Below, piece by piece: positions 817 to 63,588 of a DNA stretch of 64,000 bases. Positions within the stretch are counted from its first letter, which is position 1. Each line of letters starts with the position of its first letter. The stretch lies in NCBI RefSeq assembly GCF_009931435.1, contig NZ_CP043414.1; one strand, 5' to 3'. Below the pieces are notes generated by a model. That model made no database searches, was not told the DNA's origin, and saw only the letters and a program-made list of their open reading frames with translations. The stretch comes from Escherichia coli (GTDB lineage Bacteria > Pseudomonadota > Gammaproteobacteria > Enterobacterales > Enterobacteriaceae). The translations under genes and the position numbers were made by a program.

Positions 817-3342
817 ATGCCTTTACGACGGTTCTCCCCAGGACTGAAAGCCCAGTTTGCCTTCGGCATGGTCTTTTTGTTCGTTCAGCCCGATGCCAGC
901 GCTGCTGACATAAGCGCGCAGCAAATAGGTGGGGTGATTATTCCGCAGGCCTTCAGTCAGGCGCTTCAGGACGGCATGAGCATCCCGCTCTATATTCATC
1001 TCGCCGGTAGCCAGGGTCGCCAGGACGATCAGCGAATCGGCAGCGCTTTTATCTGGTTGGATGATGGACAGTTACGCATCCGGAAAATACAGCTGGAAGA
1101 GAGTGAAGATAACGCCAGTGTCAGCGAACAAACTCGACAGCAACTGATGACTCTGGCCAACGCCCCGTTCAATGAGGCCCTTACCATCCCCCTGACTGAC
1201 AACGCGCAGTTGGATCTCAGCTTGCGCCAACTGCTGCTGCAGCTGGTGGTCAAGCGCGAAGCACTGGGCACCGTACTACGCTCACGTAGCGAAGACATCG
1301 GGCAATCCAGTGTTAACACCCTCAGCAGTAACCTGAGCTATAACTTCGGCATCTATAACAACCAGTTGCGTAACGGCGGGAACAATACATCCAGCTATCT
1401 GTCGCTAAATAACGTGACAGCACTGCGCGAACATCATGTGGTGCTCGACGGCTCGCTGTATGGGATCGGTAGCGGTCAACAGGACAGTGAATTATATAAA
1501 GCGATGTATGAACGCGATTTTGCTGGTCACCGATTTGCCGGTGGAATGCTCGACACCTGGAACTTGCAGTCCTTAGGGCCGATGACCGCCATTTCAGCAG
1601 GGAAGATTTACGGCCTTTCCTGGGGAAACCAGGCCAGCTCCACCATCTTCGACAGCAGCCAGTCGGCCACGCCAGTGATCGCCTTTTTACCGGCGGCGGG
1701 CGAAGTACATCTCACCCGTGATGGGCGGCTACTAAGCGTTCAGAACTTCACCATGGGCAATCATGAAGTGGATACCCGAGGTCTACCGTACGGTATTTAC
1801 GATGTGGAAGTTGAGGTGATCGTTAACGGTCGCGTGATCAGCAAACGCACCCAGCGGGTCAATAAGCTGTTTAGCCGGGGGCGCGGTGTCGGTGCGCCGC
1901 TGGCGTGGCAGATATGGGGCGGCAGCTTTCATATGGATCGCTGGTCGGAAAACGGGAAAAAGACGCGACCAGCTAAAGAGAGTTGGCTAGCAGGAGCCTC
2001 GACCTCCGGCTCACTGAGTACGCTTAGCTGGGCGGCAACGGGATATGGGTACGATAATCAGGCAGTAGGTGAAACCCGTCTGACGCTGCCGCTTGGGGGA
2101 GCAATCAACGTTAACCTGCAAAACATGCTGGCCAGTGACAGCTCATGGAGCAATATCGGCAGCATCAGCGCCACACTACCGGGAGGCTTCAGTTCGCTGT
2201 GGGTTAACCAGGAGAAAACCCGCATTGGCAATCAATTGCGGCGTAGCGATGCCGACAACCGTGCAATCGGCGGCACACTCAACCTGAACTCACTGTGGTC
2301 GAAGCTGGGCACATTCAGCATCAGCTACAATGATGACCGCCGCTACAACAGCCATTATTACACGGCAGATTACTATCAAAGTGTTTACAGCGGTACCTTT
2401 GGTTCGCTTGGCCTGCGAGCCGGTATTCAGCGCTATAACAACGGCGACAGCAGCGCCAATACAGGGAAATATATCGCTCTCGATCTCTCGCTACCTCTGG
2501 GCAACTGGTTTAGCGCAGGGATGACTCATCAAAACGGCTACACCATGGCAAACCTGTCAGCACGCAAGCAGTTTGATGAAGGAACCATTCGCACTGTTGG
2601 TGCCAATCTGTCACGAGCCATCTCCGGCGATACCGGTGATGACAAAACCCTCAGCGGTGGGGCGTATGCACAGTTCGACGCTCGTTACGCCAGCGGAACG
2701 CTGAACGTCAATAGCGCGGCGGACGGCTACGTCAATACCAACTTGACCGCCAATGGCAGCGTCGGCTGGCAGGGTAAAAACATCGCTGCCAGCGGGCGGA
2801 CTGATGGCAACGCTGGGGTGATATTCAACACCGGGCTGGAGGACGACGGTCAGATCAGCGCCAAAATCAACGGGCGGATTTTCCCGCTTAACGGCAAGCG
2901 CAACTACCTCCCGCTCTCTCCGTATGGGAGATATGAGGTGGAGTTGCAGAACAGCAAAAACTCACTCGACAGCTACGATATCGTCAGCGGCCGCAAAAGC
3001 CATCTGACCCTCTATCCAGGCAATGTCGCCGTCATTGAGCCAGAGGTGAAGCAGATGGTTACCGTCTCCGGTCGTATCCGTGCAGAAGACGGCACACTGC
3101 TGGCTAACGCACGGATTAACAACCATATCGGCCGAACCCGAACCGATGAAAACGGCGAGTTTGTCATGGACGTGGATAAGAAATACCCCACTATCGATTT
3201 TCGCTACAGTGGCAATAAAACCTGCGAAGTGGCACTGGAACTCGACCAGGCGCGCGGTGCCGTCTGGGTCGGTGATGTGGTCTGCAGCGGCCTCTCATCG
3301 TGGGCGGCGGTGACGCAGACAGGAGAAGAGAATGAGAGTTAA
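817..3342 (+). CDS. ecpC: EcpC outer-membrane usher
   Basis: 841-aa ORF with N-terminal signal peptide; length and sequence recognised as EcpC/YagX. Confidence 0.9.
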
Positions 3343-4975
3343 CCTACTGATAGCGATGATAATCTTTGCGCTATTCTGGCCAGCAACCGCGCTCAGAGCT
3401 GCAGTGAGCAAAACAATCTGGACGGATGCACCGGCACGCGAGTTTGTGTTTGTCGAAAACAACTCAGACGACAACTTTTTCGTCACGCCTGGCGGGGCGC
3501 TGGATCCGCGCCTGACCGGTGCCAACCGCTGGACCGGTTTAAAATACACTGGCTCAGGAACCATCTATCAACAAAGCCTCGGCTACATTGATAACGGTTA
3601 CAACACCGGCCTTTATACCAACTGGAAGTTTGATATGTGGCTGGAAAATTCGCCGGTTTCATCTCCTTTAACTGGCTTGCGCTGCATCAACTGGTACGCA
3701 GGGTGTAATATGACCACCAGTCTTATCCTGCCGCAAACCACCGACGCCAGTGGATTTTATGGCGCGACGGTGACCAGCGGCGGCTCGAAGTGGATGCACG
3801 GCATGTTGTCAGACGCGTTTTACCAGTATCTGCAACAAATGCCCGTTGGCAGCAGCTTTACGATGACCATCAATGCCTGCCAAACCTCAGTGAACTATGA
3901 CGCCAGCAGCGGCGCGCGCTGTAAGGATCAGGCCTCCGGCAACTGGTATGTTCGCAACGTCACCCATACGAAAGCAGCAAATTTGCGGTTGATAAATACC
4001 CACTCGCTGGCGGAGGTATTTATCAACAGCGACGGAGTACCGACTCTGGGCGAAGGGAACGCCGACTGCCGGACGCAAACCATCGGCAGCCGTTCAGGAT
4101 TAAGTTGTAAGATGGTTAACTATACCCTGCAAACAAACGGGCTCAGCAACACCTCAATCCATATATTCCCGGCGATCGCCAACTCGTCGTTAGCCTCGGC
4201 CGTCGGGGCGTACGATATGCAGTTCAGTCTGAATGGTAGTTCATGGAAACCGGTGAGCAATACCGCTTATTACTACACCTTCAACGAGATGAAGAGCGCA
4301 GACTCGATCTATGTTTTCTTCTCGAGCAACTTCTTTAAGCAGATGGTGAACCTGGGGATCAGCGATATCAACACCAAAGATCTATTCAACTTTCGCTTTC
4401 AGAACACCACATCACCGGAGTCTGGCTGGTATGAATTTTCTACCTCCAACACGCTGATTATCAAACCCCGTGATTTCAGCATCAGTATTATCTCCGATGA
4501 ATATACTCAGACACCGTCGCGGGAGGGATATGTTGGCAGCGGCGAGTCGGCACTCGATTTCGGCTATATCGTAACCACCAGCGGTAAAACAGCTGCCGAC
4601 GAAGTGCTGATCAAGGTGACCGGACCCGCGCAGGTGATTGGCGGACGCTCCTATTGTGTCTTCAGCTCCGATGACGGTAAGGCGAAAGTACCGTTCCCGG
4701 CGACGCTTTCCTTTATTACCCGCAACGGAGCTACAAAAACCTACGATGCCGGGTGCGATGATAGCTGGCGGGATATGACCGATGCGCTGTGGCTAACCAC
4801 ACCGTGGACTGATATCTCTGGCGAAGTGGGGCAGATGGATAAGACCACTGTCAAATTTTCGATTCCAATGGATAACGCCATTTCGCTGCGTACGATAGAT
4901 GATAACGGCTGGTTTGGCGAAGTTAGCGCTTCAGGAGAGATTCATGTTCAGGCGACATGGCGTAACATTAACTAA
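3332..4975 (+). CDS. ecpD: EcpD pilus tip adhesin
   Basis: 547-aa ORF, signal peptide [34 protein letters not shown] upstream; overlaps ecpC by 11 nt; recognised as EcpD/YagW. Confidence 0.9.
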
Positions 4976-11412: not shown

Positions 11413-12369
11413 ATGTCATACTCGCTTTTTGACAAAGACGAGCACTGGCATAAGCCAGAGCAGGCGTTTCTCACCGATGACCACCGGACCATTCTGCGCT
11501 TCGCCGTAGAGGCGCTAATGTCCGGTAAAGGAGCGGTGCTGGTGACGCTGGTGAAGATACGCGGCGGCGCGGCGCGCCCGCTCGGAGCACAGATGGTGGT
11601 GCGCGAAGATGGTCGTTACTGCGGTTTTGTCTCTGGCGGCTGCGTGGAGGCCGCTGCCGCTTTTGAAGCGCTGGAGGTGATGGGCTCAGGCTGCGATCGC
11701 GAAATTCGCTATGGCGAAGGTTCGCCGTGGTTTGACATCGTTCTGCCCTGCGGCGGTGGGATCACGCTGACGCTCCATAAACTACGCTCGGCACAGCCTC
11801 TGCTCGCCGTGCTGAACCGCCTGGAACAGAGAAAACCGGCGGGTCTGCGCTACGATCCGCAAGCTCAATCGCTGGTGTGCCTGCCCACGCAAACCCGAAC
11901 GGGCTGGAATCTCAATGGCTTTGAGGTGGGGTTCAGGCCATGCGTCAGGCTGATGATTTACGGACGTTCTCTTGAGGCGCAGGCAACCGCGAGTCTTGCA
12001 GCAGCCACAGGCTATGACAGCCATATCTTCGATATTTTTCCGGCCTCAGCCAGCGCTCAGATCGATACCGATACGGCGGTCATTTTGCTGTGCCATGATC
12101 TCAACCGGGAGCTGCCAGTGTTGCAGGCCGCGCGAGAGGCAAAACCCTTTTATCTCGGCGCATTGGGCAGCTATCGAACCCACACGTTACGTCTGCAAAA
12201 GCTCCACGAGCTAGGATGGTCCAGGGAGGAGACAGCGCAAATCCGGGCACCCATCGGGATATTCCCCAAAGCCCGGGATGCGCATACTCTGGCACTCTCC
12301 GTGCTGGCAGAAGTCGCTTCTGTACGTCTCCATCAGGAGGAGGATTCATGCCTGCCCCCGTCGTCGTGA
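11413..12369 (+). CDS. paoD: PaoD, XdhC-type molybdenum cofactor insertion chaperone
   Basis: 318 aa; last gene of paoABCD; recognised as YagQ/PaoD. Confidence 0.85.
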   Translation: MSYSLFDKDEHWHKPEQAFLTDDHRTILRFAVEALMSGKGAVLVTLVKIRGGAARPLGAQMVVREDGRYCGFVSGGCVEAAAAFEALEVMGSGCDREIRYGEGSPWFDIVLPCGGGITLTLHKLRSAQPLLAVLNRLEQRKPAGLRYDPQAQSLVCLPTQTRTGWNLNGFEVGFRPCVRLMIYGRSLEAQATASLAAATGYDSHIFDIFPASASAQIDTDTAVILLCHDLNRELPVLQAAREAKPFYLGALGSYRTHTLRLQKLHELGWSREETAQIRAPIGIFPKARDAHTLALSVLAEVASVRLHQEEDSCLPPSS

Positions 12370-43950: not shown

Positions 43951-46900
43951 CTATTCTGGCGTACCCGTTATTGTCATCGTCTGCAACGGTCCATCCACCC
44001 GATAAAAAGGCAGTCCACTATGAGCTCCTCTGACACACTCATCTAAAGTTTTCGCCGCACGCGATTCAATTATTGTAATAACCCTTGCCTCTTCTTTATT
44101 ATCATATTTCTTATCCGTCCGACTTAAAAGAGCCATGAAATTTTCTTTATCAAGAAGGTAATACTGTGCATGTGCAAACTCATGCCCCAAACCTAATGCA
44201 GGCGATTGTGATTTCGAGTTTAATTCAGTTGAACAAAATAAAGACGCTCTACTATTCCAATATATCGTCATATTATTCGAATTAAATCTACCATTGGTTC
44301 CTTCAATATACTCTATATTTATAGTTTCTTCAGAGCTTGATAAAAAATCTATAGCATCTTTCATTCGTGAATCTTTTTCTAAATACTTAACAGCCTGATT
44401 AAAATCACTTGGATCACCATTAACCTCGAATTTTAAACCCAAAGAATCTATAAACCGAACAGGGTTTAATGGATATTTATACAGATTCCATTCACCTCTT
44501 AGCCCGATTGGATCCTGCGTGATATACCTCCCCTGCAACGGGTCATAGTACCGGTGACGGTTGTAGTACAGCCCCGACTCCTCATCATACTGCTGCCCTG
44601 GCAGACGGTACGGCTGTTGCAGGTGCTCCGGGTTTTCCTCTCCCAGCAGGTTTCCCCACTCGTCATACTCCCCGCGCCACGCCGTTTCCCCTTCCGGGCT
44701 GATAAGCGCCTGCGGCAGCCCACGGTGGTCACAGTGGTAAAGATGAAGTTTCCTCTCCGGGATGTATTCTTCCTCCATCTGGTTGTTCATCTGTTCCGCC
44801 GTCAGCCCGCACTGCGCAAGCCATGCTTCACTCTCCGCACTCACCGCACCCGCGCGCAGTTCCCGCTCCAGCCTCCCCAGCATCACCGACAGCTCCGCCG
44901 GGAGCGTCACACCCGTGTCCTCCTGCAACACCTCCGCCAGGCTACGGTGCCGCGCCTTCGCCTGTTCGCCATTCTCTGTTTCGATTCTCAGGAGCGGCGT
45001 GAAGCTTCCCGGCTGATAAATCGTCTGGATACGTGTGGTGCCGGTCTGTACCGTCGTCAGCCTGTCACCGTCCCACCCGTACCATGTCTCCTCCGGTTTA
45101 CGCGACAGCGACATCCATCCCGTCAGGTCACGCTCCCGCCGCCACACCCGTTTTCCCGTCCTGCGGCCCAGCGGGTCGTAAAGGTAGCGGCTCTCCACCT
45201 GCGGCTCGCCGTGCTGTATCCGCGTGTAGAACACCAGACGGTGCTGGCTGTCGTAATGGTAGTGGTGGGTGCGCTCGTCGTGCATCCGTATCACCCCTTC
45301 CGGGATACGGTCCGTCTTCTCCGCCAGCCTGCCGTATTCATCGTGGCGGTAGACATAGTGCGCATCTTCCGCGATGCGGTTATCCGGCCACGCCGTGAAG
45401 GTGCTGTCCGGGTGCAGTTCCGGGTCCGGCAGCCGGTTTCCTGCCGGGTCCGTCGCATACGGGATATCAATGTCCAGGTTCGCTGCCGTGGTGTGGACGC
45501 CCGTCAGCCTTCCCGTGTCGCTGTAACGGTACTCCCGGCTCTCCTGCGGGCCGCTGATACGCACCAGTTGCCCGTTATCATTCCACGTATACTCACGGTC
45601 AAGCTGCGGAAGGTTCAGGTGCCTGCTCCGGAGCTGGCCTGTGAGGGTGTATGTGCTGGTCAGTTCATATGCGGCATTACTGCCTGCCATGCTGCCGAAG
45701 CTGCGCACCGTCTCACGGTGCAGCCTGTCCCGCGTGTACTCGACCAGCGGCGTTCCGCCCAGCTTCATCCCCGCAAGATAACCGCTGCCATACGTCAGCC
45801 ACTCCACCGGCGGCAGACCGTCCGGCTCCTGACGGGTCGCCAGCCCCTGTTCGCTGTACGCGTGCCCCGTCTCATGCTCCCACAGCATCTCCCCCGTCTC
45901 CGGGTTCTCCACCGTCTGCCGTTCGCCCGTCAGGCGGCCCTTATCGTCATAGCCGTAGTGGACCGCCACACGGTGGCCTTCACTGGTATGGCTGAGGGTG
46001 GTTAACCACCCGTGCTCATCATACTGCCACTGCTCTGCCGCTTCGCCGTTCACCGTCCGGTGCGTGATGCGGTCCGACGCATCGTAGTGCCAGAGGGTGA
46101 TAAGTCCCTCGTCTTCACTGCGGACAAGCTGCCCTGTGGCGCTGTACCGGTAACGCTGTGTCCGTCCGTCAAAGCCGCGCTGCTCCGTCAGGCGGTCCAC
46201 CGGGTCATACAGGAACGTGGACTGGCTGCCGTTCTCATTAGTCAGCGTGGTGATGCGCCCGGCGGCGTCATACCCCATGCTGCGCGTCAGACCGCCCTGC
46301 GTGGTGCTGATAGCTTTACCCCACGCATCATACTGTGTCTCACTGCGGCTGCCGTTCGGGGCAATGATAGCGGTGAGGTCGCCTGCGGCGCTGTACTCAT
46401 AACGGGTTTCACGCCCCTGCACATCCTTCTGACTGACCAGTTGACCACGCGGGTTATAACTGCTGTAAGTGCTGATGCCTTCTTCCCGGTGAACCGCCGT
46501 CCTCTGCCCGTACCGGTCGTACTCATACCGTGTCGTGTACCCCGAGCAGTCCGTGAAGGCCAGCAGTTGACCGTAGCGGCTCCATGCCATCTGTTTTGTA
46601 CTGCCCGTCGCATCCTGTATCCCTGTCGGCAGCTCACTCGCCGGGTCATCATAGCTGTACCGCGTCGTCTCACCGCTGCGCGAGGTCTCCGCCGCCAGCC
46701 TTCCCTTCTCATCATACTCCCGGCTGCTGCGAAGCCCGTCCGGGTACGTCACTGACGTCACCTGCCGCTGGCTGTTGTAGCCATACCGCACCGTCCTGCC
46801 GTCCGGCCCCGTCACCGCCGTCACCGCGCCCGACGCCATATGCAGGCTGTACTCCGTCCGCCGCCCCGCCGCATCCGTCTGCGCCTTCAGCCTCCCCGCC

Positions 46901-48207
46901 GCATCATACTCGCTGCGGGTGATGCTCCCGTCCGCATGCTCCTTCTTCACCACCCGCTTCAGGCCACCCTCGCCTTCCGTGTACAGCACCTCCCGCCTGT
47001 TCAGGCTGTCCGTGATGGTCACACGGTCCTGCCCGTACTCAAAGCGGTAGGCCAGCCCCTCCGGGTTGACCTGCTCCGTCACCCGACCGGTATCATCATA
47101 CCGGTAGCGGCTCTCCGGCCTCCCCGCATAATGGTGCGCCACCATCCGCCCGGCGTGCTCCGCATCATAAGTAAACCCGCGCACCTGCGTCCCGCTGCGG
47201 TCATACACCGCCAGCAACTCACCGCTGGCCGTGTACGTGTAGCGCGCCAGCGGCGCAGTCGGCTGTTCATCCGGGTATGCCGGGTCGTGTGTCAGCCACA
47301 CCGCCTCCAGCCGGATACCGTTATCGGCACCGTATTCTGTACCGGCGGGCAGCGTGTCGGGGAAAACCTGAGAAGAGGAAACAGAACGGGGACCGGCAGG
47401 GGAAGATAAAGACGTGGCGCGCTGTTTACGGCAGGCTTCCGCCCGCTGCGCCTGCGTGCTCAGCAACAGGTGAAAACGACGGCCCGCACCGTCCGTCCCC
47501 CCCGTCACCGCGCCCGCCACGTCACCCTCCGCTGCCCGGTGAAAGGCCAGCGTCCGACCAAAGCCATCCACCACGCCCGTCAGCACCCGGTATGCGGGCG
47601 GTTCCGGCGGCAGCACCTCGTCCGCCCCCGGCACCCGCTCCGGCCAGCTGAGTATCCACCACGGCCCCTGAAGGCTGTTTGTCGCCAGGTACACATGCGG
47701 ACTCAGGCGAACATCTTCCGGCAGCACCTGCCAGAGCGCGCTTAGCGGCTGCGAACTGTGCTGCTCCGCCCCCCCGCCCCGCGCCAGCCAGAACGACTCG
47801 CTGCGGCTGTAGCTTATCTCGCCGGGAAACAGCGGCTCAAAGTGAATGCTCCTGCCGCCGTTGTCGTTGAGTATCAGTTCCCGCTCATGAACCTGTAAGC
47901 GGATATCGAAGGGCGCTTTCCAGCCGGGGCCGAACACGCCCACCGGCGCGGGCGTCCTGGTCCGGTAACTGCTGTAAGCGCGGGAAAGAATAAACGGCAG
48001 CGGGCCGGGCAGTGCCAGGTCCGTCTCGCCCGGCAGCACCTTCGCACCCAGCACCGGGTTCACCGGGTTAGCATAGGTAATCCCTCCCGGACACACCGAG
48101 CAGGCCACTCCCGTCGGCGCACCTATCAGCACCCCTGCTGAACCCTGCACAATATCCAGTCCCTTGCGGGTCATGTCGCCCTGCCGCGCCGCCGGTTTTC
48201 CGCTCAT
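43951..48207 (-). CDS. PAAR-Rhs polymorphic toxin (Rhs2), HExxH-containing C-terminal domain
   Basis: 1418 aa; N-terminus carries a literal PAAR motif ([13 protein letters not shown]...GSAGVLIG); long YD-repeat core; core ends [27 protein letters not shown]; last about 160 aa unique, with HEFAH. Confidence 0.9.
44497..47450. repeat. Rhs core direct repeat, copy A (paired with 50623-53580)
   Basis: Track shows identical 483-aa antisense ORFs at 44554-46005 and 50680-52131, so at least 1.45 kb is nucleotide-identical between the two Rhs genes; flanking core highly similar with scattered substitutions. Outer boundaries approximate. Confidence 0.8.
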
Positions 48208-48330
48208 GGTTTATTCCTCTTCCTCTGAATAAACTTATTTTTGATGCACTAATGATTTTCAAAAGAGATTTATATTTAACGACAATTCAGCACTTTTAAT
48301 GTAAAAGATCCCCGGCTGAATGATATTCAC

Positions 48331-49323
48331 TCATTGTTTGTTATCAGAAAGTGTTTTATACAGCGGCACATATCCCACGTCTTCCACAAGACTTTGCCCC
48401 TGAGGGCTTAAAAACCAGTCCACTAGTTTTTGTGTTTCCGGTGTCGGCTTTTCGCGGGTGACCATGTAGGCATCCACCACATACGGATAAGTACCGTTGC
48501 GGATATTCTCCACCGTTGGTGCAATACCATTTATTGCCAGCAGCTTAAGATTTGGGCTTATATCCTTATTCATCTGTGTGACATAATAGCGGAAGGTGTA
48601 ACCAATTGAAGGCTGCGTATTCCGGTAGGCAATTACTTTGGTTAACACTCCATTCATAAGGCTTACTTCTGTAGATGTTCTGGCGGGTAGCATCGGTGTC
48701 TCTTTCATCACCTTTGCCAGCATCACCGTCTGGCTACCGGAATCTTCCGGACGCTGCCAGACCTGAATGCGCTCATCACTGCCACCAACCTGACTCCAGC
48801 GGGTGATTTTACCGCTGAAGATATCCCGAACCTGCTGTTCAGTAAAAGAACTGACCGGATTACTGGCGTTAACGATAAAAACAAAGGCTTCGTGGGCGAA
48901 GGGGGTATAAACCAGTTTCACCCCGGCATCGGCAGCCCGTTGTTTTTGTCCTGCGGAAGGCTGGGCAACAAAAATAACATCGGCCTGGCGCTTTATGAGA
49001 TCATTATAGGCTTCTGGTGTACGAGTCGGATACATATAATTCAAACCCGGATCTTGATGGTTATCCCCGGGGATCAAATATCGGTAAGCTGAAGCATACA
49101 GTGGATATAACGCGGTTGCACCACATACCCGGGGCCATTTATTCGAGTTATCAGTGTAGCGTAAAGTGGGTTCTCCTCGTATATTGGTTTTCTCCCAACT
49201 CACTGTTTCTTTTACGCTGTTATCGCCCCCGCCGTCTACACATCCTGACATTAATACCGTCATATAAAATAATACTGGTAACAGGCCCACCCTACGCATA
49301 CAATGATTTAATAAATACGCCAT
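48331..49323 (-). CDS. PstS-like (phosphate-binding-protein fold) putative lipoprotein, orphan
   Basis: Track ORF 48331-49365; start placed at ATG 49323 (GAGG SD 5-6 nt upstream) giving MAYLLNHCMRRVGLLPVLFYMTVLMSGC with lipobox-like LMSGC; PstS-like motifs (VIFVAQPSAGQ..., FTEQQVRDIFSGKITRWSQVGGSDERIQVW); no ABC transporter genes nearby. Confidence 0.55.
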   Translation of the reverse strand: MAYLLNHCMRRVGLLPVLFYMTVLMSGCVDGGGDNSVKETVSWEKTNIRGEPTLRYTDNSNKWPRVCGATALYPLYASAYRYLIPGDNHQDPGLNYMYPTRTPEAYNDLIKRQADVIFVAQPSAGQKQRAADAGVKLVYTPFAHEAFVFIVNASNPVSSFTEQQVRDIFSGKITRWSQVGGSDERIQVWQRPEDSGSQTVMLAKVMKETPMLPARTSTEVSLMNGVLTKVIAYRNTQPSIGYTFRYYVTQMNKDISPNLKLLAINGIAPTVENIRNGTYPYVVDAYMVTREKPTPETQKLVDWFLSPQGQSLVEDVGYVPLYKTLSDNKQ

Positions 49324-49627: not shown

Positions 49628-50074
49628 TCAATACTTAGTGCAGCGTGTCTTAAGGAAATTAGAAGCCACAACATCAATCTTTTCTTTTAAGACTAAATCA
49701 TCCACATAATCACAAGACAAATAGAAGTCATTACCATCGGCCATTATAAATATCCTCATAGGTAAAGATTTATCATTATCAACATGAGCATTCGTAATAA
49801 TCCAATAATAAGGAAATCTAACATTTTTTGTAGGAATACCCAATAAATCATAAGCTTTATTATTATATTCTATCGCTCCCTTAACAAACGTTGGTTTGAC
49901 CTCCTTACCAATAATGCGATGCGACGTATATTCTTCCTTCTCAGCAAACGATTGCATTAATGCCCATATAGGTTTATTTGCCAGCTCACCGTGATGAAAA
50001 ATCCGATAAAAATACACTCCTAAAAAAAATATTAAGCCTAAGCAAACCAATACCATGAGGCAGTTCTTACTCAT
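49628..50074 (-). CDS. Putative membrane-anchored immunity protein for the Rhs1 C-terminal toxin
   Basis: 148 aa; ATGA start/stop overlap with Rhs1; single N-terminal TM helix ([19 protein letters not shown]); AT-rich. No recognised family. Confidence 0.55.
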
Positions 50075-53000
50075 TGATTAAAATCCGTAAAATTAGAAGG
50101 AACAGGGCCATTCTCAGGTGAAAACAATGGAGATGTATTTGATACTCGTGATGCTATCATTTCTACAGTAGCAGGAAGATACATTGGCATTCCATTATCA
50201 CCACCTAGCGGATCAGTTGAAGTTAAAATTTCATTTATTGAATCTACTGAGACTCCCGCATGCAACATTGCCTCAATAACCATTGTTGCACAATTGTGCG
50301 TAAAATAGTTATAGTCACTTCTATCTACTTTATATTTTTCATCAATGTACTTAATCATTGCTTTCTCTTGTTCTGGCGTGGTTTTAATTGTATATATCCT
50401 CGTGCTTCTACGTTGTGCTTGTTCAGTTAAATAAGCTATGACACTCCCTCCACGTGGGGTAGCGGTTCCATAGCTATATACCCCTTTTCCAGTAAATGCC
50501 ATCGCAGAATGCCCTAATGGATTACCACTCGTGGGTCCCCCAGCAAAAATAAGGGTATCCAAACCAAGTGGATCTATATTTATAGTTGGATTCCACGGAT
50601 ATTTATAAAGATTCCATCCCCCCGCAAGCCCGATTGGATCCTGCGTGATATACCTCCCCTGCAACGGGTCATAGTACCGGTGACGGTTGTAGTACAGCCC
50701 CGACTCCTCATCATACTGCTGCCCTGGCAGACGGTACGGCTGTTGCAGGTGCTCCGGGTTTTCCTCTCCCAGCAGGTTTCCCCACTCGTCATACTCCCCG
50801 CGCCACGCCGTTTCCCCTTCCGGGCTGATAAGCGCCTGCGGCAGCCCACGGTGGTCACAGTGGTAAAGATGAAGTTTCCTCTCCGGGATGTATTCTTCCT
50901 CCATCTGGTTGTTCATCTGTTCCGCCGTCAGCCCGCACTGCGCAAGCCATGCTTCACTCTCCGCACTCACCGCACCCGCGCGCAGTTCCCGCTCCAGCCT
51001 CCCCAGCATCACCGACAGCTCCGCCGGGAGCGTCACACCCGTGTCCTCCTGCAACACCTCCGCCAGGCTACGGTGCCGCGCCTTCGCCTGTTCGCCATTC
51101 TCTGTTTCGATTCTCAGGAGCGGCGTGAAGCTTCCCGGCTGATAAATCGTCTGGATACGTGTGGTGCCGGTCTGTACCGTCGTCAGCCTGTCACCGTCCC
51201 ACCCGTACCATGTCTCCTCCGGTTTACGCGACAGCGACATCCATCCCGTCAGGTCACGCTCCCGCCGCCACACCCGTTTTCCCGTCCTGCGGCCCAGCGG
51301 GTCGTAAAGGTAGCGGCTCTCCACCTGCGGCTCGCCGTGCTGTATCCGCGTGTAGAACACCAGACGGTGCTGGCTGTCGTAATGGTAGTGGTGGGTGCGC
51401 TCGTCGTGCATCCGTATCACCCCTTCCGGGATACGGTCCGTCTTCTCCGCCAGCCTGCCGTATTCATCGTGGCGGTAGACATAGTGCGCATCTTCCGCGA
51501 TGCGGTTATCCGGCCACGCCGTGAAGGTGCTGTCCGGGTGCAGTTCCGGGTCCGGCAGCCGGTTTCCTGCCGGGTCCGTCGCATACGGGATATCAATGTC
51601 CAGGTTCGCTGCCGTGGTGTGGACGCCCGTCAGCCTTCCCGTGTCGCTGTAACGGTACTCCCGGCTCTCCTGCGGGCCGCTGATACGCACCAGTTGCCCG
51701 TTATCATTCCACGTATACTCACGGTCAAGCTGCGGAAGGTTCAGGTGCCTGCTCCGGAGCTGGCCTGTGAGGGTGTATGTGCTGGTCAGTTCATATGCGG
51801 CATTACTGCCTGCCATGCTGCCGAAGCTGCGCACCGTCTCACGGTGCAGCCTGTCCCGCGTGTACTCGACCAGCGGCGTTCCGCCCAGCTTCATCCCCGC
51901 AAGATAACCGCTGCCATACGTCAGCCACTCCACCGGCGGCAGACCGTCCGGCTCCTGACGGGTCGCCAGCCCCTGTTCGCTGTACGCGTGCCCCGTCTCA
52001 TGCTCCCACAGCATCTCCCCCGTCTCCGGGTTCTCCACCGTCTGCCGTTCGCCCGTCAGGCGGCCCTTATCGTCATAGCCGTAGTGGACCGCCACACGGT
52101 GGCCTTCACTGGTATGGCTGAGGGTGGTTAACCACCCGTGCTCATCATACTGCCACTGCTCTGCCGCTTCGCCGTTCACCGTCCGGTGCGTGATGCGGTC
52201 CGACGTATCGTAGTGCCAGAGGGTGATAAGCCCCTCGTCTTCACTGCGGACAAGCTGCCCTGCGGCGCTGTACCGGTAACGCTGTGTCCTGCCATCAAAG
52301 CCGCGCTGCTCCGTCAGGCGGTCCAGCACATCATAGGTAAACTCACTCCGGCTGCCGTTCTCGTTGGTCAGCACGGTGATGCGCCCGGCGGCGTCATACC
52401 CCATGCTGCGCGTCAGCCCGCCCTGCGTGGTGCTGACGGCCTTTCCCCACGCATCATACTGTGTCTCACTGCGGCTGCCGTCCGGGGCAATGATAGCGGT
52501 GAGGTCGCCTGCGGCGCTGTACTCATAACGGGTTTCACGCCCCTGCACATCCTTCTGACTGACCAGTTGACCACGCGGGTTATAACTGCTGTAAGTGCTG
52601 ATGCCTTCTTCCCGGTGAACCGCCGTCCTCTGCCCGTACCGGTCGTACTCATACCGTGTCGTGTACCCCGAGCAGTCCGTGAAGGCCAGCAGTTGACCGT
52701 AGCGGCTCCATGCCATCTGTTTTGTACTGCCCGTCGCATCCTGTATCCCTGTCGGCAGCTCACTCGCCGGGTCATCATAGCTGTACCGCGTCGTCTCACC
52801 GCTGCGTGAGGTCTCCGCCGCCAGCCTTCCCTTCTCGTCATACTCCCGGCTGCTGCGCAGCCCGTCCGGGTACGTCACTGACGTCACCTGCCGCTGGCTG
52901 TTGTAGCCATACCGCACCGTCCTGCCGTCCGGCCCCGTCACCGCCGTCACCGCGCCCGACGCCATATGTATCCGGTACTCCGTCCGCCGTCCCGCCGCAT

Positions 53001-54342
53001 CCGTCTGCGCCTTCAGCCTCCCCGCCTCATCATACCCGCTGCGGGTGATGCTCCCGTCCGCATGCTCCTTCTTCACCACACGCTTCAGGCCACCCTCGCC
53101 CTCCGTGTACAGCACCTCCCGCCTGTTCAGGCTGTCCGTGATGGTCACACGGTCCTGCCCGTACTCAAAGCGGTAGTCCAGTCCCTCCGGGTTGACCTGC
53201 TCCGTCACCCGCCCGGTATCATCATACCGGTAGCGGCTCTCCGGCCTCCCCGCATAATGGTGCGCCACCATCCGCCCGGCGTGCTCCGCATCATAAGTAA
53301 ACCCGCGCACCTGCGTCCCGCTGCGGTCATACACCGCCAGCAACTCACCGCTGGCCGTGTACGTGTAGCGCGCCAGCGGCGCAGTCGGCTGTTCATCCGG
53401 GTATGCCGGGTCGTGTGTCAGCCACACCGCCTCCAGACGGATACCGTTATCGGCACCGTATTCTGTACCGGCGGGCAGCGTGTCGGGGAAAACCTGAGAA
53501 GAGGAAACAGAACGGGGACCGGCAGGGGAAGATAAAGACGTGGCGCGCTGTTTACGGAAGGCTTCCGCCCGCTGCGCCTGCGTGCTCAGCAACAGGTGAA
53601 AACGACGGCCCGCACCGTCCGTCACCCCCGTCACCGCGCCCGCCACGTCACCCTCTGCCACCCGGTGGAAAGTCATCGTCCGACCAAAGCCATCCACCAC
53701 GCCCGTCAGTACCCGGTATGCGGGTGGCTCCGGCGGCAGCACCTCGTCCACTTCCGGCACCCGCTCCGGCCAGCCGAGCACCAGCCACTGCCCGGTTGTG
53801 CTGACAGCCATCATATAGGTGTGTGGACTCAGGCGGACCGCTTCCGGCAGCGCCCGCCAGAACCGCGCAAGCGGGTGTCCTTTATGCTGTTTCAGCACCC
53901 CGCCCCGCGCCAGCCAGAACGACTCGCTGCGGCTGTAGCTTATCTCGCCGGGAAACAGGGGTTCAAAGTGGATGCTCCGGCCACCGCTGTCGTTAAGTAT
54001 CAGTTCACGCTCACAAATCTGTAAGCGGATGTCGGAGGGGGCTTTCCAGCCGGGGCCGAATATCCCCACCGGGGCTGGCGTCTTCGTCCGGTAACTGCTG
54101 TAGGCGCGGAAAAGGATGAACGGCAACGGGCCGGATAGTGCCAGGTCGGTTTCAGCAGGCAGTACCTTCGCTCCCAGCAGCGGGTTTACCGGATTGCCAT
54201 ATTTCGGCGTGGCTTCCCCTGTGGGACACACCGAGCAGGCAACCCCCGTCGGCGCACCTATCAGCACCCCTGCTGAACCCTGCACAATATCCAGTCCCTT
54301 GCGGGTCATGTCACCCTGCCGCGCCGCCGGTTTTCCGCCCAT
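50071..54342 (-). CDS. PAAR-Rhs polymorphic toxin (Rhs1), His/Cys-containing C-terminal domain
   Basis: 1423 aa; PAAR motif at N-terminus ([13 protein letters not shown]...); YD-repeat core; core ends [27 protein letters not shown]; last about 162 aa unique (…[11 protein letters not shown]…[11 protein letters not shown]…); GAAGGA SD; 75 nt downstream of vgrG. Confidence 0.9.
50623..53580. repeat. Rhs core direct repeat, copy B (paired with 44497-47450)
   Basis: See copy A; same orientation, about 6.1 kb apart. Confidence 0.8.
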
Positions 54343-54417: not shown

Positions 54418-56559
54418 TCAAAATTGCCGCATATCCGGCATTCCGGGGGGTAAATCTTTCGGCACAGGCGCATCCGGCACAGGTTGTGTGGCACCACAGT
54501 TCCAGTTAATCACCGGCGCATCACCGTTCACATCCGACTCCCCTTCCAGATGAATGTGCGTACCATTAAGAAATATGCTTCCGTCCTTCGTCAGCACCAG
54601 CCTTGCCTTACCACAGCAGAGTTCAAGATGCTCACCGGCAGAATAAACTGCTGTTTGTCCGGTGTTTTCCTTCATCGTCTTGCCCACCGAGAAGGTGACG
54701 TTATTCCCTACATTGACGCTGTAGCCCATTCCCACCATCAGTGATTTATGCAGCCCTACCTGTGAGGACTGCAACAACGCCACCGAGGTATTCATAATGC
54801 CGCCTACCGTCGTCTGGTAAGCCACGCCCACCGTCAGCGCACGAATGATCCCCACCTTTTCAACCTGGTTTGATCCCACTTTGATAATCTGGTTACTGCC
54901 CACCGTTTCCACCTGGTTGACACCAACCGTCTGTATCTGATTAACGCCAATGTTCTGGATCTGGTTATTGGTAACGGTGATCGCCTGGTTGTTACCTATT
55001 TTTTCGGCATGGTTGTTTATCACATCAGTGGTGCGGTTATTCAGCACCTCGGTGTTCATGTTCTTCTGCGCGTGGATGTAGACCTGTTCTTTCCCTGTCG
55101 CATCGTCAAACTTCAGTTCATTAAACCCGCTGCCCTTATAGGTTTTCGAACGAATGGTCATCTGCGTCTTTGTTCCCGGCAGGCTGCCGGGGGTGCGGTT
55201 TTCCTGGTGGTAGGTACGCCCCATAATAATCGGCTGGTCCGGATCGCCGTTGAGGAAGTCCACAATGACCTCCTGACCCACACGCGGTATCGCCAGGTTA
55301 CCAAACCCGGTGCCTGCCCACGCCTGTGCCACACGGATCCAGCATGAACTGTCCTGGTTTGACGGGTTATAACGGTCCCAGTTAAATTTCACCCGCACGC
55401 GGCCATGTTCATCACAGAAGATTTCTTCTCCTGCCGGTCCCGTCACGACGGCGCTCTGCGGGCCATCCACCAGCGGTTTCAGCAACGGCTGTGGCCGCCA
55501 TGTTCTGTCTGCCGGTATTACCGCAAAGTGGTTATTCAGCGTGGTACCTGAACCCCTGCGTCCCGGCACCGCCTGCGGCTGCTCGCCGTGCAGTTCACTT
55601 GCCACCACCTGCCATTCCCGGTTCAGGTTCGCCTGCGGATGCCCCGTCAGCGCAATTCGCCGTCCCGGCCATATCTCCGGAGAACGGCTTGTTCCGCGCG
55701 CCACTTCTGCGTTGTTTCGCCAGCCATCCATCTGCCAGCGGGCAAAGTTCTGCCCGTGGGCACCCTTGAAACGTCCGGGGTAGTCATACACTTCATACTG
55801 TGTGCGCTGGTAATCCTGGTACTGGCCTTCCTGATCAAAACGCCCTGCCCAGCCGGGTCGTTTAAAGGTGTAGTCCTTGGTCACCACGGAAGAAGGGCGG
55901 ATTTGTGCGCTGTAGCGGAACTGGCTGATGCATAGGGTGCTCACCTCGGTACGGGTGTTCGGATTCCAGGGGATCTCAAAGGACTCCGGCAGATAACGCA
56001 CGGTGTCGCACAGGACCAGGCTCTGGTCGGTACTTTTTTGCGCGTGCTCCTCATAAAAGAAGATGCCTTCCTCCGCCGCCATCCGGCACAGGAAATCGTA
56101 ATCGGTTTCGCCGTACTGGACACAAAACTCACGGGAAGGATGCGGCTCGCTGAACAGCGGACTCCACTCGGTCACCCCGTTTTCTTTCAGGATCGTCGCG
56201 AGTATGCTTTCGATGTCCTCATTCTGGAAGATACGGAAGTTCTGGCGCAGCCCTGTGCGCCACAGCGGTGGGCATACCTTCATGCTGTACAGCATCTGGT
56301 TTTTGTCGTTCTCCCCCAGTTCAAACCAGGTCACCACACCTTTCACCCGGCGCTGTACGTCATCGCCCTGCCATATCGTCAGGTAGGCCATTTTGTCCAG
56401 CACCTGCGCAAATTCAAGGGAGAGAAACTGCTGGCTGACCAGAGAGAGATCGAGGGAAAAGAGCGAAGAGAGTGACTGGTTCAGATGAAAGGAGACCACC
56501 GCAAACGCGTCCGGTGGCAGGCCGTCCACTTCCAGCGTGAAACGTAATCCGGTTGACAT
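54418..56559 (-). CDS. vgrG: VgrG (TssI) spike protein
   Basis: 713 aa; gp27/gp5-like region and C-terminal beta-helix repeats (VGVNQVETVGSNQIIKVGSNQVEKVG); no large C-terminal effector extension. Confidence 0.9.
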   Translation of the reverse strand: MSTGLRFTLEVDGLPPDAFAVVSFHLNQSLSSLFSLDLSLVSQQFLSLEFAQVLDKMAYLTIWQGDDVQRRVKGVVTWFELGENDKNQMLYSMKVCPPLWRTGLRQNFRIFQNEDIESILATILKENGVTEWSPLFSEPHPSREFCVQYGETDYDFLCRMAAEEGIFFYEEHAQKSTDQSLVLCDTVRYLPESFEIPWNPNTRTEVSTLCISQFRYSAQIRPSSVVTKDYTFKRPGWAGRFDQEGQYQDYQRTQYEVYDYPGRFKGAHGQNFARWQMDGWRNNAEVARGTSRSPEIWPGRRIALTGHPQANLNREWQVVASELHGEQPQAVPGRRGSGTTLNNHFAVIPADRTWRPQPLLKPLVDGPQSAVVTGPAGEEIFCDEHGRVRVKFNWDRYNPSNQDSSCWIRVAQAWAGTGFGNLAIPRVGQEVIVDFLNGDPDQPIIMGRTYHQENRTPGSLPGTKTQMTIRSKTYKGSGFNELKFDDATGKEQVYIHAQKNMNTEVLNNRTTDVINNHAEKIGNNQAITVTNNQIQNIGVNQIQTVGVNQVETVGSNQIIKVGSNQVEKVGIIRALTVGVAYQTTVGGIMNTSVALLQSSQVGLHKSLMVGMGYSVNVGNNVTFSVGKTMKENTGQTAVYSAGEHLELCCGKARLVLTKDGSIFLNGTHIHLEGESDVNGDAPVINWNCGATQPVPDAPVPKDLPPGMPDMRQF

Positions 56560-56768: not shown

Positions 56769-57287
56769 TTATGCTTCCAGCGGTGCGCGCCAGTCGTCGG
56801 CACCGGAGGTGCCAGATTTGACGTGTTCCCACTCAATCTTGCGGTAGGCCAGTGAAACTTCGAGCAACTGGGTGAACTCGCGTTTCGCCGGGTCCTGGCA
56901 ATGCGGCATATGCAGTTTCATATCGACAATCGTCGAATCAGTCAGGCGGGTGGTGAAATAATGCTCCTGTTTGCCTTCCACAGATGTACGCCACCAGTGC
57001 AGTTCAGTGGTTGGCAGCATTTCACCGGAGGCCAGTGCGTTGTACATCAGCGGAACCGCTTTGTTCAGCGCCACGGTAAAAATGAACGGCTTGTGAGCAC
57101 GCTGACCCGCAGGCTGACCGGACTGAGGATCGGTCGGGACAGTAACGTTATGCAGGAATTCCTGCACCAGCATCTCGTCTTCGTGCCCCTGCACATAGAT
57201 GTTGCCGACAGAATCAGCGGTAAATGCACCTGCAGTAATATTTCCCTGGGTCTGACCAGTGATGGAGATATAACACGGTGTTGGCAT
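56769..57287 (-). CDS. hcp: Hcp (TssD) tube protein
   Basis: 172 aa, Hcp1-family sequence (MPTPCYISITGQTQGNITAGAFTADSVGNIYVQGHEDEMLVQEF...); directly upstream of vgrG. Confidence 0.85.
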   Translation of the reverse strand: MPTPCYISITGQTQGNITAGAFTADSVGNIYVQGHEDEMLVQEFLHNVTVPTDPQSGQPAGQRAHKPFIFTVALNKAVPLMYNALASGEMLPTTELHWWRTSVEGKQEHYFTTRLTDSTIVDMKLHMPHCQDPAKREFTQLLEVSLAYRKIEWEHVKSGTSGADDWRAPLEA

Positions 57288-58517: not shown

Positions 58518-58742
58518 ATGACGGCACACAAAAATATCTCCGGGACATACCACCTCTCTGTTGCAGACATTCTGCAGGTGGTTTACCAGGTATGTTTCAG
58601 CCCGTCCGTTGAAATCAACCAGGATGGTGTGGCTGCGCTGATTACAACACTGGATCGCCGTATCAGTGATCTATTGGATGAGATTATCCATTTTTGTGAG
58701 TTTCAGCAGAGCGCGTCGCACTGGCAGCGCGTACTTCACTGA
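58518..58742 (+). CDS. Hypothetical 74-aa protein resembling a TssC N-terminal segment
   Basis: ORF between tssB and tssC; C-terminal half (LITTLDRRISDLLDEIIHFCEFQQSASHWQRV) aligns with TssC residues IADIDERISRQMDVIIHAPAFQQVESFWRSL; similarity is protein-level only. Confidence 0.3.
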   Translation: MTAHKNISGTYHLSVADILQVVYQVCFSPSVEINQDGVAALITTLDRRISDLLDEIIHFCEFQQSASHWQRVLH

Positions 58743-60691: not shown

Positions 60692-62542
60692 ATGGAATTT
60701 GAAGAACGCTATTTCCGGGAAGAACTCGATTACCTGCGCCAGCTCAGCAAGCTGCTGGCAACGGAAAAACCCCATCTGGCCCGCTTCCTGGCCGAAAAAG
60801 ATGCGGATCCGGATATTGAACGCCTGCTGGAAGGCGTGGCTTTTCTTACCGGCAATCTCCGTCAAAAAATTGAGGATGAATTCCCAGAACTGACGCACGG
60901 GCTTATCAAGATGCTGTGGCCTAATTACCTGCGTCCGGTTCCGGCAATGACCCTTATTGAATATACGCCGGATATGGATAAGTCTTCTGTGCCGGTGTTA
61001 ATCCCCCGTAATGAGCAGTTTACAACCAACGCCGGGGAAATCAGAGTCGATGAAGTGCTGCCCTCCGATGCTAAAAAGGAGGAGCCGCCTCCCTGTACCT
61101 TCACCCTCTGCCGGGATATCTGGCTGCTGCCCGTTCGCCTGGAGCAGATTGAAAACCGCAGTACGACCCGTAATGGTGTTATCAACATCACCTTTTCGGT
61201 CGCACCGGGAACGGACTTCCGCACGCTGGATCTGAACAAACTTCGCTTCTGGCTCGGCAATGACGACAACTATACCCGTGACCAGCTTTATTTATGGTTC
61301 TGTGAATACTTGCAGGGTGCCGACCTGACTGTGGGTGAACAGCATATTCGCCTGCCTGAGTTTATACTGAAAGCTGTCGGTTTTGAGCCGCAGGATGCCA
61401 TGCTGCCCTGGCCGAAAAACGTCCACAGCGGCTACCGGATCCTTCAGGAGTATTTCTGTTACCCGGATGCGTTTCTCTTTTTTGATCTTTGTGGTTGCCC
61501 GGCGTTACCTGACGGATTGCAGGCTGAATCCTTTACCCTGCAACTGCGTTTTTCGCGCCCATTGCCCGTGGACATCCGGTTGCGCCGCGACTCCCTGCGC
61601 CTGTATTGCGCGCCTGCCATTAATTTATTTATCCACCATGCAGAAGCCATCACGCTGGACAACCGGCGGGCAGACTATCCGCTGGTTCCCAGCCGCCATT
61701 ATCCGAAACATTACGATGTCTTTTCCGTTAACGGCGTGATAAGCCAGGTGCAGGATATGTTCAGGAAAAAAGATCTGGGGCGTCCTGTTTCGACGCAGGC
61801 CGCGCGCCAGTGGCCTGCCTTTGAAAGTTTCAGCCATCAGATGGAATACAGCCGGAAGCGGGAAGTGGTGTACTGGCATCACCGGACCAAAACATCCCTG
61901 TTCCATCGCGGCTTTGATCATACCCTTGCTTTTATACATGCTGATGGCAGTTATCCGTCAGACGAATCGCTGCTCAGTAATGAAGTGGTTTCGGTATCGC
62001 TGACCTGTACCAACCGTGAGCTTCCGTCACAAATTCGTTCCGGCGATATCACCGGCACAACCGGTAAAAATGCGGCTGTTGCTTCATTTCGCAACATTAC
62101 CCGCCCGACGCAACCACTCTGGCCGGTCATTGATGGCAGCCTGCACTGGTCCCTACTCTCCGCCATGAACCTGAATTATCTGTCATTACTAGATACGGAC
62201 GCGCTGAAGCAGGTCATCGCCAACTTTGATCGCCACGCAATCCATCATCCGCAGACGGCGCGGCTGTCACAACAAAAGCTGGATGCCATTGAGCGTCTGG
62301 AGACCCGCCCCGTTGATCGCCTGTTTACGGGTATTCCCGTCCGGGGGCTGGCCTCCACGCTGTATCTGCACCCGGAGCCGTTTGTCTGTGAAGGGGAAAT
62401 GTATCTGCTCGGTACGGTGCTTTCGCATTTTCTGTCGCTGTACGCCAGCGTTAACTCATTCCACATGCTGACCGTTGTGAACACAGAAAGCCAGGAGACA
62501 TGGAAATGGACGGAAAGAACCGGGCAGCATCCTCTTATCTGA
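60692..62542 (+). CDS. tssF: TssF baseplate protein
   Basis: 616 aa; size, sequence and operon position consistent with TssF. Confidence 0.8.
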   Translation: MEFEERYFREELDYLRQLSKLLATEKPHLARFLAEKDADPDIERLLEGVAFLTGNLRQKIEDEFPELTHGLIKMLWPNYLRPVPAMTLIEYTPDMDKSSVPVLIPRNEQFTTNAGEIRVDEVLPSDAKKEEPPPCTFTLCRDIWLLPVRLEQIENRSTTRNGVINITFSVAPGTDFRTLDLNKLRFWLGNDDNYTRDQLYLWFCEYLQGADLTVGEQHIRLPEFILKAVGFEPQDAMLPWPKNVHSGYRILQEYFCYPDAFLFFDLCGCPALPDGLQAESFTLQLRFSRPLPVDIRLRRDSLRLYCAPAINLFIHHAEAITLDNRRADYPLVPSRHYPKHYDVFSVNGVISQVQDMFRKKDLGRPVSTQAARQWPAFESFSHQMEYSRKREVVYWHHRTKTSLFHRGFDHTLAFIHADGSYPSDESLLSNEVVSVSLTCTNRELPSQIRSGDITGTTGKNAAVASFRNITRPTQPLWPVIDGSLHWSLLSAMNLNYLSLLDTDALKQVIANFDRHAIHHPQTARLSQQKLDAIERLETRPVDRLFTGIPVRGLASTLYLHPEPFVCEGEMYLLGTVLSHFLSLYASVNSFHMLTVVNTESQETWKWTERTGQHPLI

Positions 62543-63588
62543 GTCCGGGACATCCCCCGGCAGATAAAGAGCAGAATGATCCGCTGGCACAGGTTTTCCA
62601 TAACGCCTGCTCTTACAATTTTTTTGCGATGGCGGAGCTGTTGCACCGCCTGGCACAGGGTGAAAAGGGGACACCGGAATTATCCCTGCGCGATGATCCG
62701 GCACAGGAAACCCTGCGTTTCAGCGCCGATGCCAGCCTTGCCTTCCCGTGCAGTGATATCAGTGGGCTGAAACGGGATAAGTCAGGGGCATTCAGGATGA
62801 CCACCACCTTTATGGGGTTACAGGGGAGCCAGTCGCCTCTTCCCGGTTATTACCTGGATCACCTGGCCTGGAAAGCGGTACATGAACAAAGTCCGGTAGG
62901 CGATTTTCTGGATATGTTCAGCCACCGCCTGACCCAGTTTGTCTGGCATATCTGGCGTAAGTACCGCTATCACATCAGTTTTCGTAACGGCGGTGTGGAT
63001 GCGTTCTCGCAGCGCATGTACTCCCTTGTCGGGCTGGGCCACCGCCAGCTTCGCGATAAGCTGGCGATTAATCACAGCAAAATGCTGGCGTATTCCGGGA
63101 TCCTGGCAAATCCGGGACGATCCCCGGAAATCATCTGCGGCCTGGTGTCCCACTGTTTTGACTTGTCAGACGTGACGCTGCAAAACTGGCAACGTCGCAA
63201 GGTGGATATTGAACCGGATCAGCAAAACAGCCTGGGGAGCTATTCCCTTAAAAATGGCGAAAAACTGGCCGGAAGATCGGTACTGGGCAACTTTGTTCTG
63301 GGTACACGGGTGCCCGATCTCAGCGGAAAATTCCAGCTCAGTATTACCAGCCTGACCCGAAAACAGTTCCTCTCTTTTCTGCCGTCCGGCGAAAACTTCC
63401 TGCCACTGACGATGTTTGTGTCCTTCATCCTGCGCGATCAGCTTGCCTGGGACTTACATCTGGGGCTGGCACCGGAGCAGGTGGGCGCAATGCGCCTGGG
63501 CGATAACAAAAGTGCGCTGCTGGGCTGGACCAGCTTCCTCGGCACACCGGAAGAACGACCCTCAGTCACCATCAGGGTACGGTCGTAA
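62506..63588 (+). CDS. tssG: TssG baseplate protein
   Basis: Track ORF starts at 62500; second ATG at 62506 has better AGGAG spacing; about 360 aa; overlaps the tssF 3' end by about 37 nt. Confidence 0.75.
   Translation: MDGKNRAASSYLSPGHPPADKEQNDPLAQVFHNACSYNFFAMAELLHRLAQGEKGTPELSLRDDPAQETLRFSADASLAFPCSDISGLKRDKSGAFRMTTTFMGLQGSQSPLPGYYLDHLAWKAVHEQSPVGDFLDMFSHRLTQFVWHIWRKYRYHISFRNGGVDAFSQRMYSLVGLGHRQLRDKLAINHSKMLAYSGILANPGRSPEIICGLVSHCFDLSDVTLQNWQRRKVDIEPDQQNSLGSYSLKNGEKLAGRSVLGNFVLGTRVPDLSGKFQLSITSLTRKQFLSFLPSGENFLPLTMFVSFILRDQLAWDLHLGLAPEQVGAMRLGDNKSALLGWTSFLGTPEERPSVTIRVRS

Follow-up and report, generated by a model that had tools for sequence, protein, structure and literature searches.

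In the 64,000-nt stretch of Escherichia coli chromosomal DNA analysed here (the window), tssG almost certainly starts at the ATG at position 62506, inside the 3' end of tssF, and the two genes of this type VI secretion system (T6SS) cluster overlap by 37 nt. Taken as a whole, our explanation is that tssG is translated from this ATG, that the 37-nt overlap is genuine and conserved, and that translational coupling of the two genes most likely accompanies it; we hold this explanation with high confidence.

The E. coli strain 2013C-4282 (NZ_CP027579), which is 99.9% identical to the window over the region 62200-62900, was used as the reference for annotation, and DNA similar to this region was found in 2116 of 5426 complete E. 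coli genomes. The NZ_CP027579 annotation was applied only to the shared genes, namely the ecp operon and the T6SS cluster; compared with the whole window, the reference is not collinear upstream of the T6SS cluster. In its PGAP annotation, hcp, vgrG, tssB, a small hypothetical gene, tssC, tssE, tssF, tssG and tagH are followed by tssJ, tssK, tssL, tssH, vasI, tssA and tssM. The core neighbour genes of a type VI secretion cluster were thus found around the pair in the PGAP annotation of this 99.9% identical locus, and the two ORFs upstream of tssF were identified by Pfam as TssC and TssE. The E. coli T6SS-1/2/3 subtype naming was not found in the review PMC6730261, and the cluster is given no subtype name here.

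The ORF list, Pfam and PGAP agree on tssF as a + strand coding sequence at 60692-62542, encoding 616 amino acids and ending in TGA at 62540-62542. Its product matched the Pfam family PF05947 (T6SS_TssF) with an E value of 3e-130 and a score of 436 bits (gathering cutoff 25), residues 6-612 of 616 aligning to positions 7-607 of 608, so that the match is full-length and extends into the overlap region. From the start supported by PGAP, homologue alignment, locus conservation and Pfam, tssG occupies 62506-63588 on the + strand and encodes 360 amino acids. Its product matched PF06996 (T6SS_TssG) with an E value of 4e-87 and 292.7 bits (gathering cutoff 24.6), residues 38-348, as numbered in the 362-codon ORF, covering positions 4-304 of 304, again a full-length family match. 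In addition, a phmmer comparison with the TssG of enteroaggregative E. coli (EAEC; 6GIY_C) gave an E value of 4.6e-26.

Several other features of the surrounding DNA were observed. Two large paralogous tandem ORFs of 1418 and 1423 aa lie on the minus strand at 43951-48207 and 50071-54342, adjoining vgrG (54418-56559) and hcp (56769-57287), and they show mirrored patterns of spurious plus-strand ORFs. Their homologue in NZ_CP027579 is annotated as "RHS element core protein", and they are likely Rhs effector genes. Beside the Rhs region of NZ_CP027579, outside the window, an ISAs1 transposase pseudogene and a group II intron (ltrA) are found at 46137-48804 (L096). Between tssB and tssC, a 74-aa hypothetical CDS at about 58518-58742 of the window is annotated in a near-identical genome (L001, 8319-8543).

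The tssG reading frame lies at -1 relative to tssF and is opened by a TAA at 62452-62454 (+ strand), after which the first start in the ORF list is the ATG at 62500. The original prediction placed the overlap of tssF and tssG at 37-43 nt, and an overlap of this size was borne out, being 43 nt when counted from ATG 62500 and 37 nt when counted from ATG 62506; within that range, 37 nt is the value supported. In NZ_CP027579, PGAP ends tssF at 12343 and begins tssG at 12307, a 37-nt overlap whose start maps to 62506 of the window. The dual-coding segment at 62506-62542 (+ strand) therefore carries TssF residues W606-I616 with the stop codon and, in the -1 frame, TssG residues 1-12 (MDGKNRAASSYL). 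The tssG ATG is formed across the TssF codons K605 (AAA) and W606 (TGG) at 62504-62509 (+ strand), as A|TGG. A Shine-Dalgarno-like AGGAG at 62493-62497 (+ strand) is located 8 nt upstream of ATG 62506, within the TssF codons Q601-E602 (CAG GAG). With both the start codon and the Shine-Dalgarno motif inside tssF, the initiation signals of tssG fall on bases that are under TssF coding constraint as well.

The overlap had been described as unusual against overlaps of 1-4 nt elsewhere in the window, which is only partly right. In the ecp fimbrial operon, ecpC and ecpD overlap on the same strand by 11 nt at 3332-3342, and ecpD and ecpE by 32 nt at 4944-4975, the latter counted from the PGAP start, corresponding to 4944. 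The ecp operon thus also has longer-than-usual overlaps, and tssF/tssG is not the sole long overlap in the window.

To place the TssG N-terminus, 21 homologues with 53-92% identity from Salmonella, Citrobacter, Buttiauxella, Yersinia, Serratia, Trabulsiella and others were aligned. All 21 N-termini aligned on the Met at 62506, with the motif M-x-G-x-[ND]-R, followed by a linker of variable length and then the conserved TssG domain. Since predicted N-termini depend on gene callers, the DNA of the loci was inspected directly. A one-genome-per-species scan yielded 80 related loci, which belong to Enterobacterales, Pasteurellaceae and Aeromonas and show 49-99% protein identity. Each of the 80 has an ATG before the end of the tssF stop codon, at a distance of exactly 37 nt in 68 and of 34 nt in the remaining 12, which form one clade with a one-codon deletion, and tssG was in the -1 frame at every one of them. 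Furthermore, of the 68 distinct junction sequences, nearly all have cAGGAG or cAGGAA at the unchanged 8-nt distance, and many Xenorhabdus and Photorhabdus loci have a tssG-frame stop codon directly before the conserved ATG. In one related locus, that of Rahnella laticis (L078), the tssG frame is broken 3' of the -37 ATG at about 3007-3245 and the TssG match is picked up again in another frame from residue 98; this tssG is either a pseudogene or an assembly error.

The codons underlying the ATG show a distinctive pattern. Whereas the Trp606 codon of TssF is invariant among the related loci, the codon before it varies at its first and second bases and always ends in A, with an amino-acid entropy of 1.46 bits and a third-base entropy of 0 over 66 distinct sequences. 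The codons used are GAA (58), CAA (11), AAA (4), ACA (3) and CGA (3), encoding five amino acids (E, Q, K, T and R), counts that do not represent independent events as the loci share phylogeny. Elsewhere in tssF, the background use of these A-ending codons is 0.65 for GAA, 0.38 for CAA, 0.70 for AAA, 0.20 for ACA and 0.15 for CGA. A wobble base that is fixed under a free amino acid is the pattern that selection on an overlapping start codon would leave, and it marks selection on the tssG ATG itself. Together with the presence of an ATG at -37 or -34 in all 80 loci, the invariant A indicates that the overlap is not a chance ORF artefact.

We also considered selection on the TssG tail, as judged from low synonymous variation across the whole overlap, and rejected it, as the reduction was modest. 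TssF third positions within the overlap had an entropy only modestly below that upstream, except for the start-codon base and the second and third codons. With third-position variability only slightly reduced, the conservation of TssG residues 1-12 appears to derive mostly from the constraint on TssF. These residues form a poorly conserved N-terminal tail ahead of the Pfam domain. In an AlphaFold2 model of TssG that is poor as a whole (mean pLDDT 55.7, pTM 0.38), residues 1-25 had the lowest pLDDT, about 30, hinting that the N-terminal tail may be disordered.

More distant T6SS loci were sought with tblastn against plasmids and chromids, which returned 424 records, and 14 loci with 23-43% identity were inspected. 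Ten of these, from alpha-, beta- and gammaproteobacteria, carry the ATG at exactly -37 (Salinivibrio, two Paraburkholderia, Enterobacter, Rahnella, Ralstonia, Azospirillum, Rhizobium etli, Sinorhizobium and Pseudosulfitobacter), and for five of the ten a 37-nt overlap is also what the deposited annotation records. In the high-GC genomes among the distant loci, the codon before Trp or Cys again ends in A (CGA, AGA, GCA, GAA). In three of the loci, L082 (Salinivibrio, 2411-2471), L083 (Paraburkholderia sprentiae) and L093 (Sinorhizobium medicae), the annotated start lies downstream despite an in-frame -37 ATG, either 23 nt after the tssF stop or at a 4-nt or 1-nt overlap; these tssG entries may be N-terminal truncations in RefSeq.

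The -37 ATG is absent from the other four distant loci, those of Campylobacter coli, Vibrio sp. THAF64 and the Escherichia albertii and Pantoea piersonii plasmids, all of which have an ATGA or GTGA 4-nt overlap instead. These loci share the gene order and the -1 phase of the window, and three of the four keep the G-[EK]-x3-W motif at the TssF C-terminus. Different from the window, three of them have C ahead of the Trp codon (CTGG), and Campylobacter has no Trp there. With C before TGG, or with no Trp, the -37 position lacks an ATG, and the stop-start junction provides the start of tssG. As a 4-nt overlap suffices in several T6SS lineages, function does not depend on the 37-nt form.

These distant loci bear on whether tssG might instead start downstream of, or right at, the tssF stop codon, with the long overlap being an ORF artefact. 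In favour of such a start, the first ~35 TssG residues fall outside the Pfam TssG domain, residues 1-25 have the low pLDDT of about 30 given above within a model that is poor overall, some distant T6SS loci start at the 4-nt overlap position, and PGAP chose a downstream start in Salinivibrio, P. sprentiae and Sinorhizobium despite an ATG at -37. However, the window has no in-frame ATG, GTG or TTG at 62509-62628, and the 4-nt position, where other T6SS loci (L083, L086, L088, L091 and L095 were compared) have an ATGA or GTGA start, is occupied by the non-canonical CTG at 62539-62541 (+ strand). The next in-frame canonical start, the ATG at 62629-62631 (+ strand), is Met44 of the 362-codon ORF and is already inside the conserved TssG domain; initiation there would cut off the invariant N40-F41 motif, which is encoded upstream of it. 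With no canonical start before ATG 62629, an overlapping upstream start is forced unless a non-canonical codon is used. The internal start further downstream that the original prediction had offered as one option is therefore rejected, and the alignment revealed no conserved downstream start in the homologues, all of which place their Met at 62506. Moreover, the A completing the ATG is invariant under five different preceding amino acids, and the conserved Shine-Dalgarno motif is at optimal spacing from ATG 62506. On this evidence, a start at or beyond the tssF stop is very improbable.

Translation from the first ATG, at 62500-62502 (+ strand), would give a 43-nt overlap and a protein of 362 aa, and both ATGs might also be used. 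No other start codon stands between the in-frame stop and this ATG, the four closest relatives (L002-L005) retain the resulting 'MEM' arrangement, and some database proteins are 362 aa long. Against this, the AGGAG ends only 2 nt before ATG 62500, a gap from Shine-Dalgarno motif to start codon that is too close for normal initiation. The 'MEM...' arrangement occurs only in the window and these four relatives, the ATG is missing from the other 76 of the 80 related loci, and the PGAP start is 62506. We therefore regard initiation at 62500 as unlikely, albeit less so than a start at the tssF stop; it is probably not the main start, and it may serve as a minor second start. ATG 62506 is retained as the tssG start in what follows.

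By its arrangement, the gene pair has the positional features expected of a translationally coupled overlapping pair: both genes are on the same strand, the start of the downstream gene is inside the upstream ORF by 37 nt, and the ribosome-binding site of tssG is within the tssF coding sequence. Near the tssF/tssG junction, no promoter match and no + strand terminator match were found; one terminator-like match was on the minus strand and at chance level. An internal tssG promoter and a terminator after tssF were rejected on these grounds, indicating that tssF and tssG are co-transcribed. The junction RNA (62455-62560) showed no structure beyond chance, with a minimum free energy of -25.2 kcal/mol, the mean for shuffled sequences being -27.7 (z = +0.69). 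A structure masking the Shine-Dalgarno motif or the ATG was thus not found, and as the junction RNA is not unusually structured, a structure-based coupling mechanism is unsupported. Termination followed by reinitiation 37 nt backwards is expected to be inefficient.

It has also to be asked whether programmed -1 ribosomal frameshifting in the overlap makes a TssF-TssG fusion. The -1 frame of tssG relative to tssF at every locus inspected would be consistent with this, as would the natural tssF'-'tssG fusion of uropathogenic E. coli (UPEC) CFT073 and a functional engineered fusion (PMC4604203). However, the -1 phase is equally given by a plain ATGA overlap, and tssG is equipped with a conserved Shine-Dalgarno motif and ATG of its own. 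Furthermore, no slippery heptamer of the form X XXY YYZ occurs in the last 40 tssF codons, and the junction RNA is neither stable nor unusual in structure (z = +0.69 as above). Lacking both the heptamer and the structure, the frameshift-fusion model was rejected, and we consider its chance close to nil.

Translational coupling of separately initiated tssF and tssG is plausible, since it fits the geometry and the conserved register and matches a suggestion made for Serratia. The tssG start is superimposed on the invariant TssF Trp codon (xxA|TGG) and its AGGAG on Gln601-Glu602, and tssF and tssG are carried on one mRNA. Ribosomes translating tssF run across the start of tssG and reach the tssF stop 37 nt further on, and their passage would most likely tie TssG synthesis to TssF synthesis in space and time. 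Such linked synthesis would suit TssF and TssG, neither of which is stable without the other and which form a (TssF)2(TssG)1 heterotrimer.

In Serratia, tssF and tssG have been reported to overlap, with the ribosome-binding site of TssG located inside tssF and with 'likely translational coupling' (English et al. 2014, PMC4072051). The same work found a TssF:TssG ratio of 2:1, and neither protein could be produced alone, in keeping with mutual instability. The Serratia loci in our set (L030 and L038) have the 37-nt register of the window, although the published work concerns another species and strain, Serratia marcescens Db10; its text states no overlap length, and neither the conservation of the register nor the Trp-codon anchoring is analysed in it. 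In EAEC, TssF and TssG stabilise each other (Brunet et al. 2015, PMC4604203), and cryo-EM has shown them as an interdigitated (TssF)2(TssG)1 heterotrimer (PMC6300606). The tssF'-'tssG gene of UPEC CFT073, a natural fusion whose engineered TssF-TssG counterpart is functional (PMC4604203), is an extreme linkage of the same gene pair as in the window. In CFT073 the pair is one reading frame, whereas the window has two ORFs that are out of phase and have separate start and stop codons.

The E. coli T6SS-1 or EAEC Sci-1 type (6GIY, 6N38) resembles the window in the gene pair, the -1 phase, a TssF ...R-W-K-E... motif and a start codon at -37. It differs in its protein identity of only about 27-30% to the window and in its gene order, tssF-tssG-tssJ-tssE. 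In the T6SS-1-type locus L097, GTG occupies the -37 position, and PGAP chose an ATG at -46 as the tssG start, so that the annotated overlap is 46 nt long; the beginning of the EAEC TssG chain in 6GIY, a cryo-EM entry, agrees with this start. In the same locus (2496-2541), a purine-rich AAGGAAA is found only 1-2 nt before the -46 ATG and about 10 nt before the -37 GTG, and tssG of the EAEC-type system may in fact begin at this GTG.

A tssF/tssG overlap with likely coupling is already in print for Serratia (English et al. 2014), and the present finding is real but ordinary. Our modest additions are the 37-nt register kept across distant T6SS lineages and the anchoring of the tssG start on an invariant Trp codon with a selected A before it. 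The main value is for annotation: the long overlap is real and 62506 is the correct tssG start, and homologues for which pipelines picked other starts are flagged, such as the 46-nt overlap in E. coli T6SS-1 and the downstream start in Salinivibrio. Long overlaps are often mis-annotations, and the tssF/tssG case is backed by an unusual signature in which the third base is invariant and the amino acid variable.

A bolder possibility, which we advance tentatively and consider rather doubtful, is that the 37-nt register is an ancient, selectively kept expression device that makes TssG synthesis dependent on, and lower than, that of TssF. If so, the device would help to set the 2:1 TssF:TssG ratio and could allow the co-translational capture of unstable TssG by freshly made TssF, and the lineages with a 4-nt ATGA overlap would represent an alternative solution. 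If coupling itself is confirmed, tssF/tssG would neatly exemplify a gene overlap that helps an obligate 2:1 complex to assemble.
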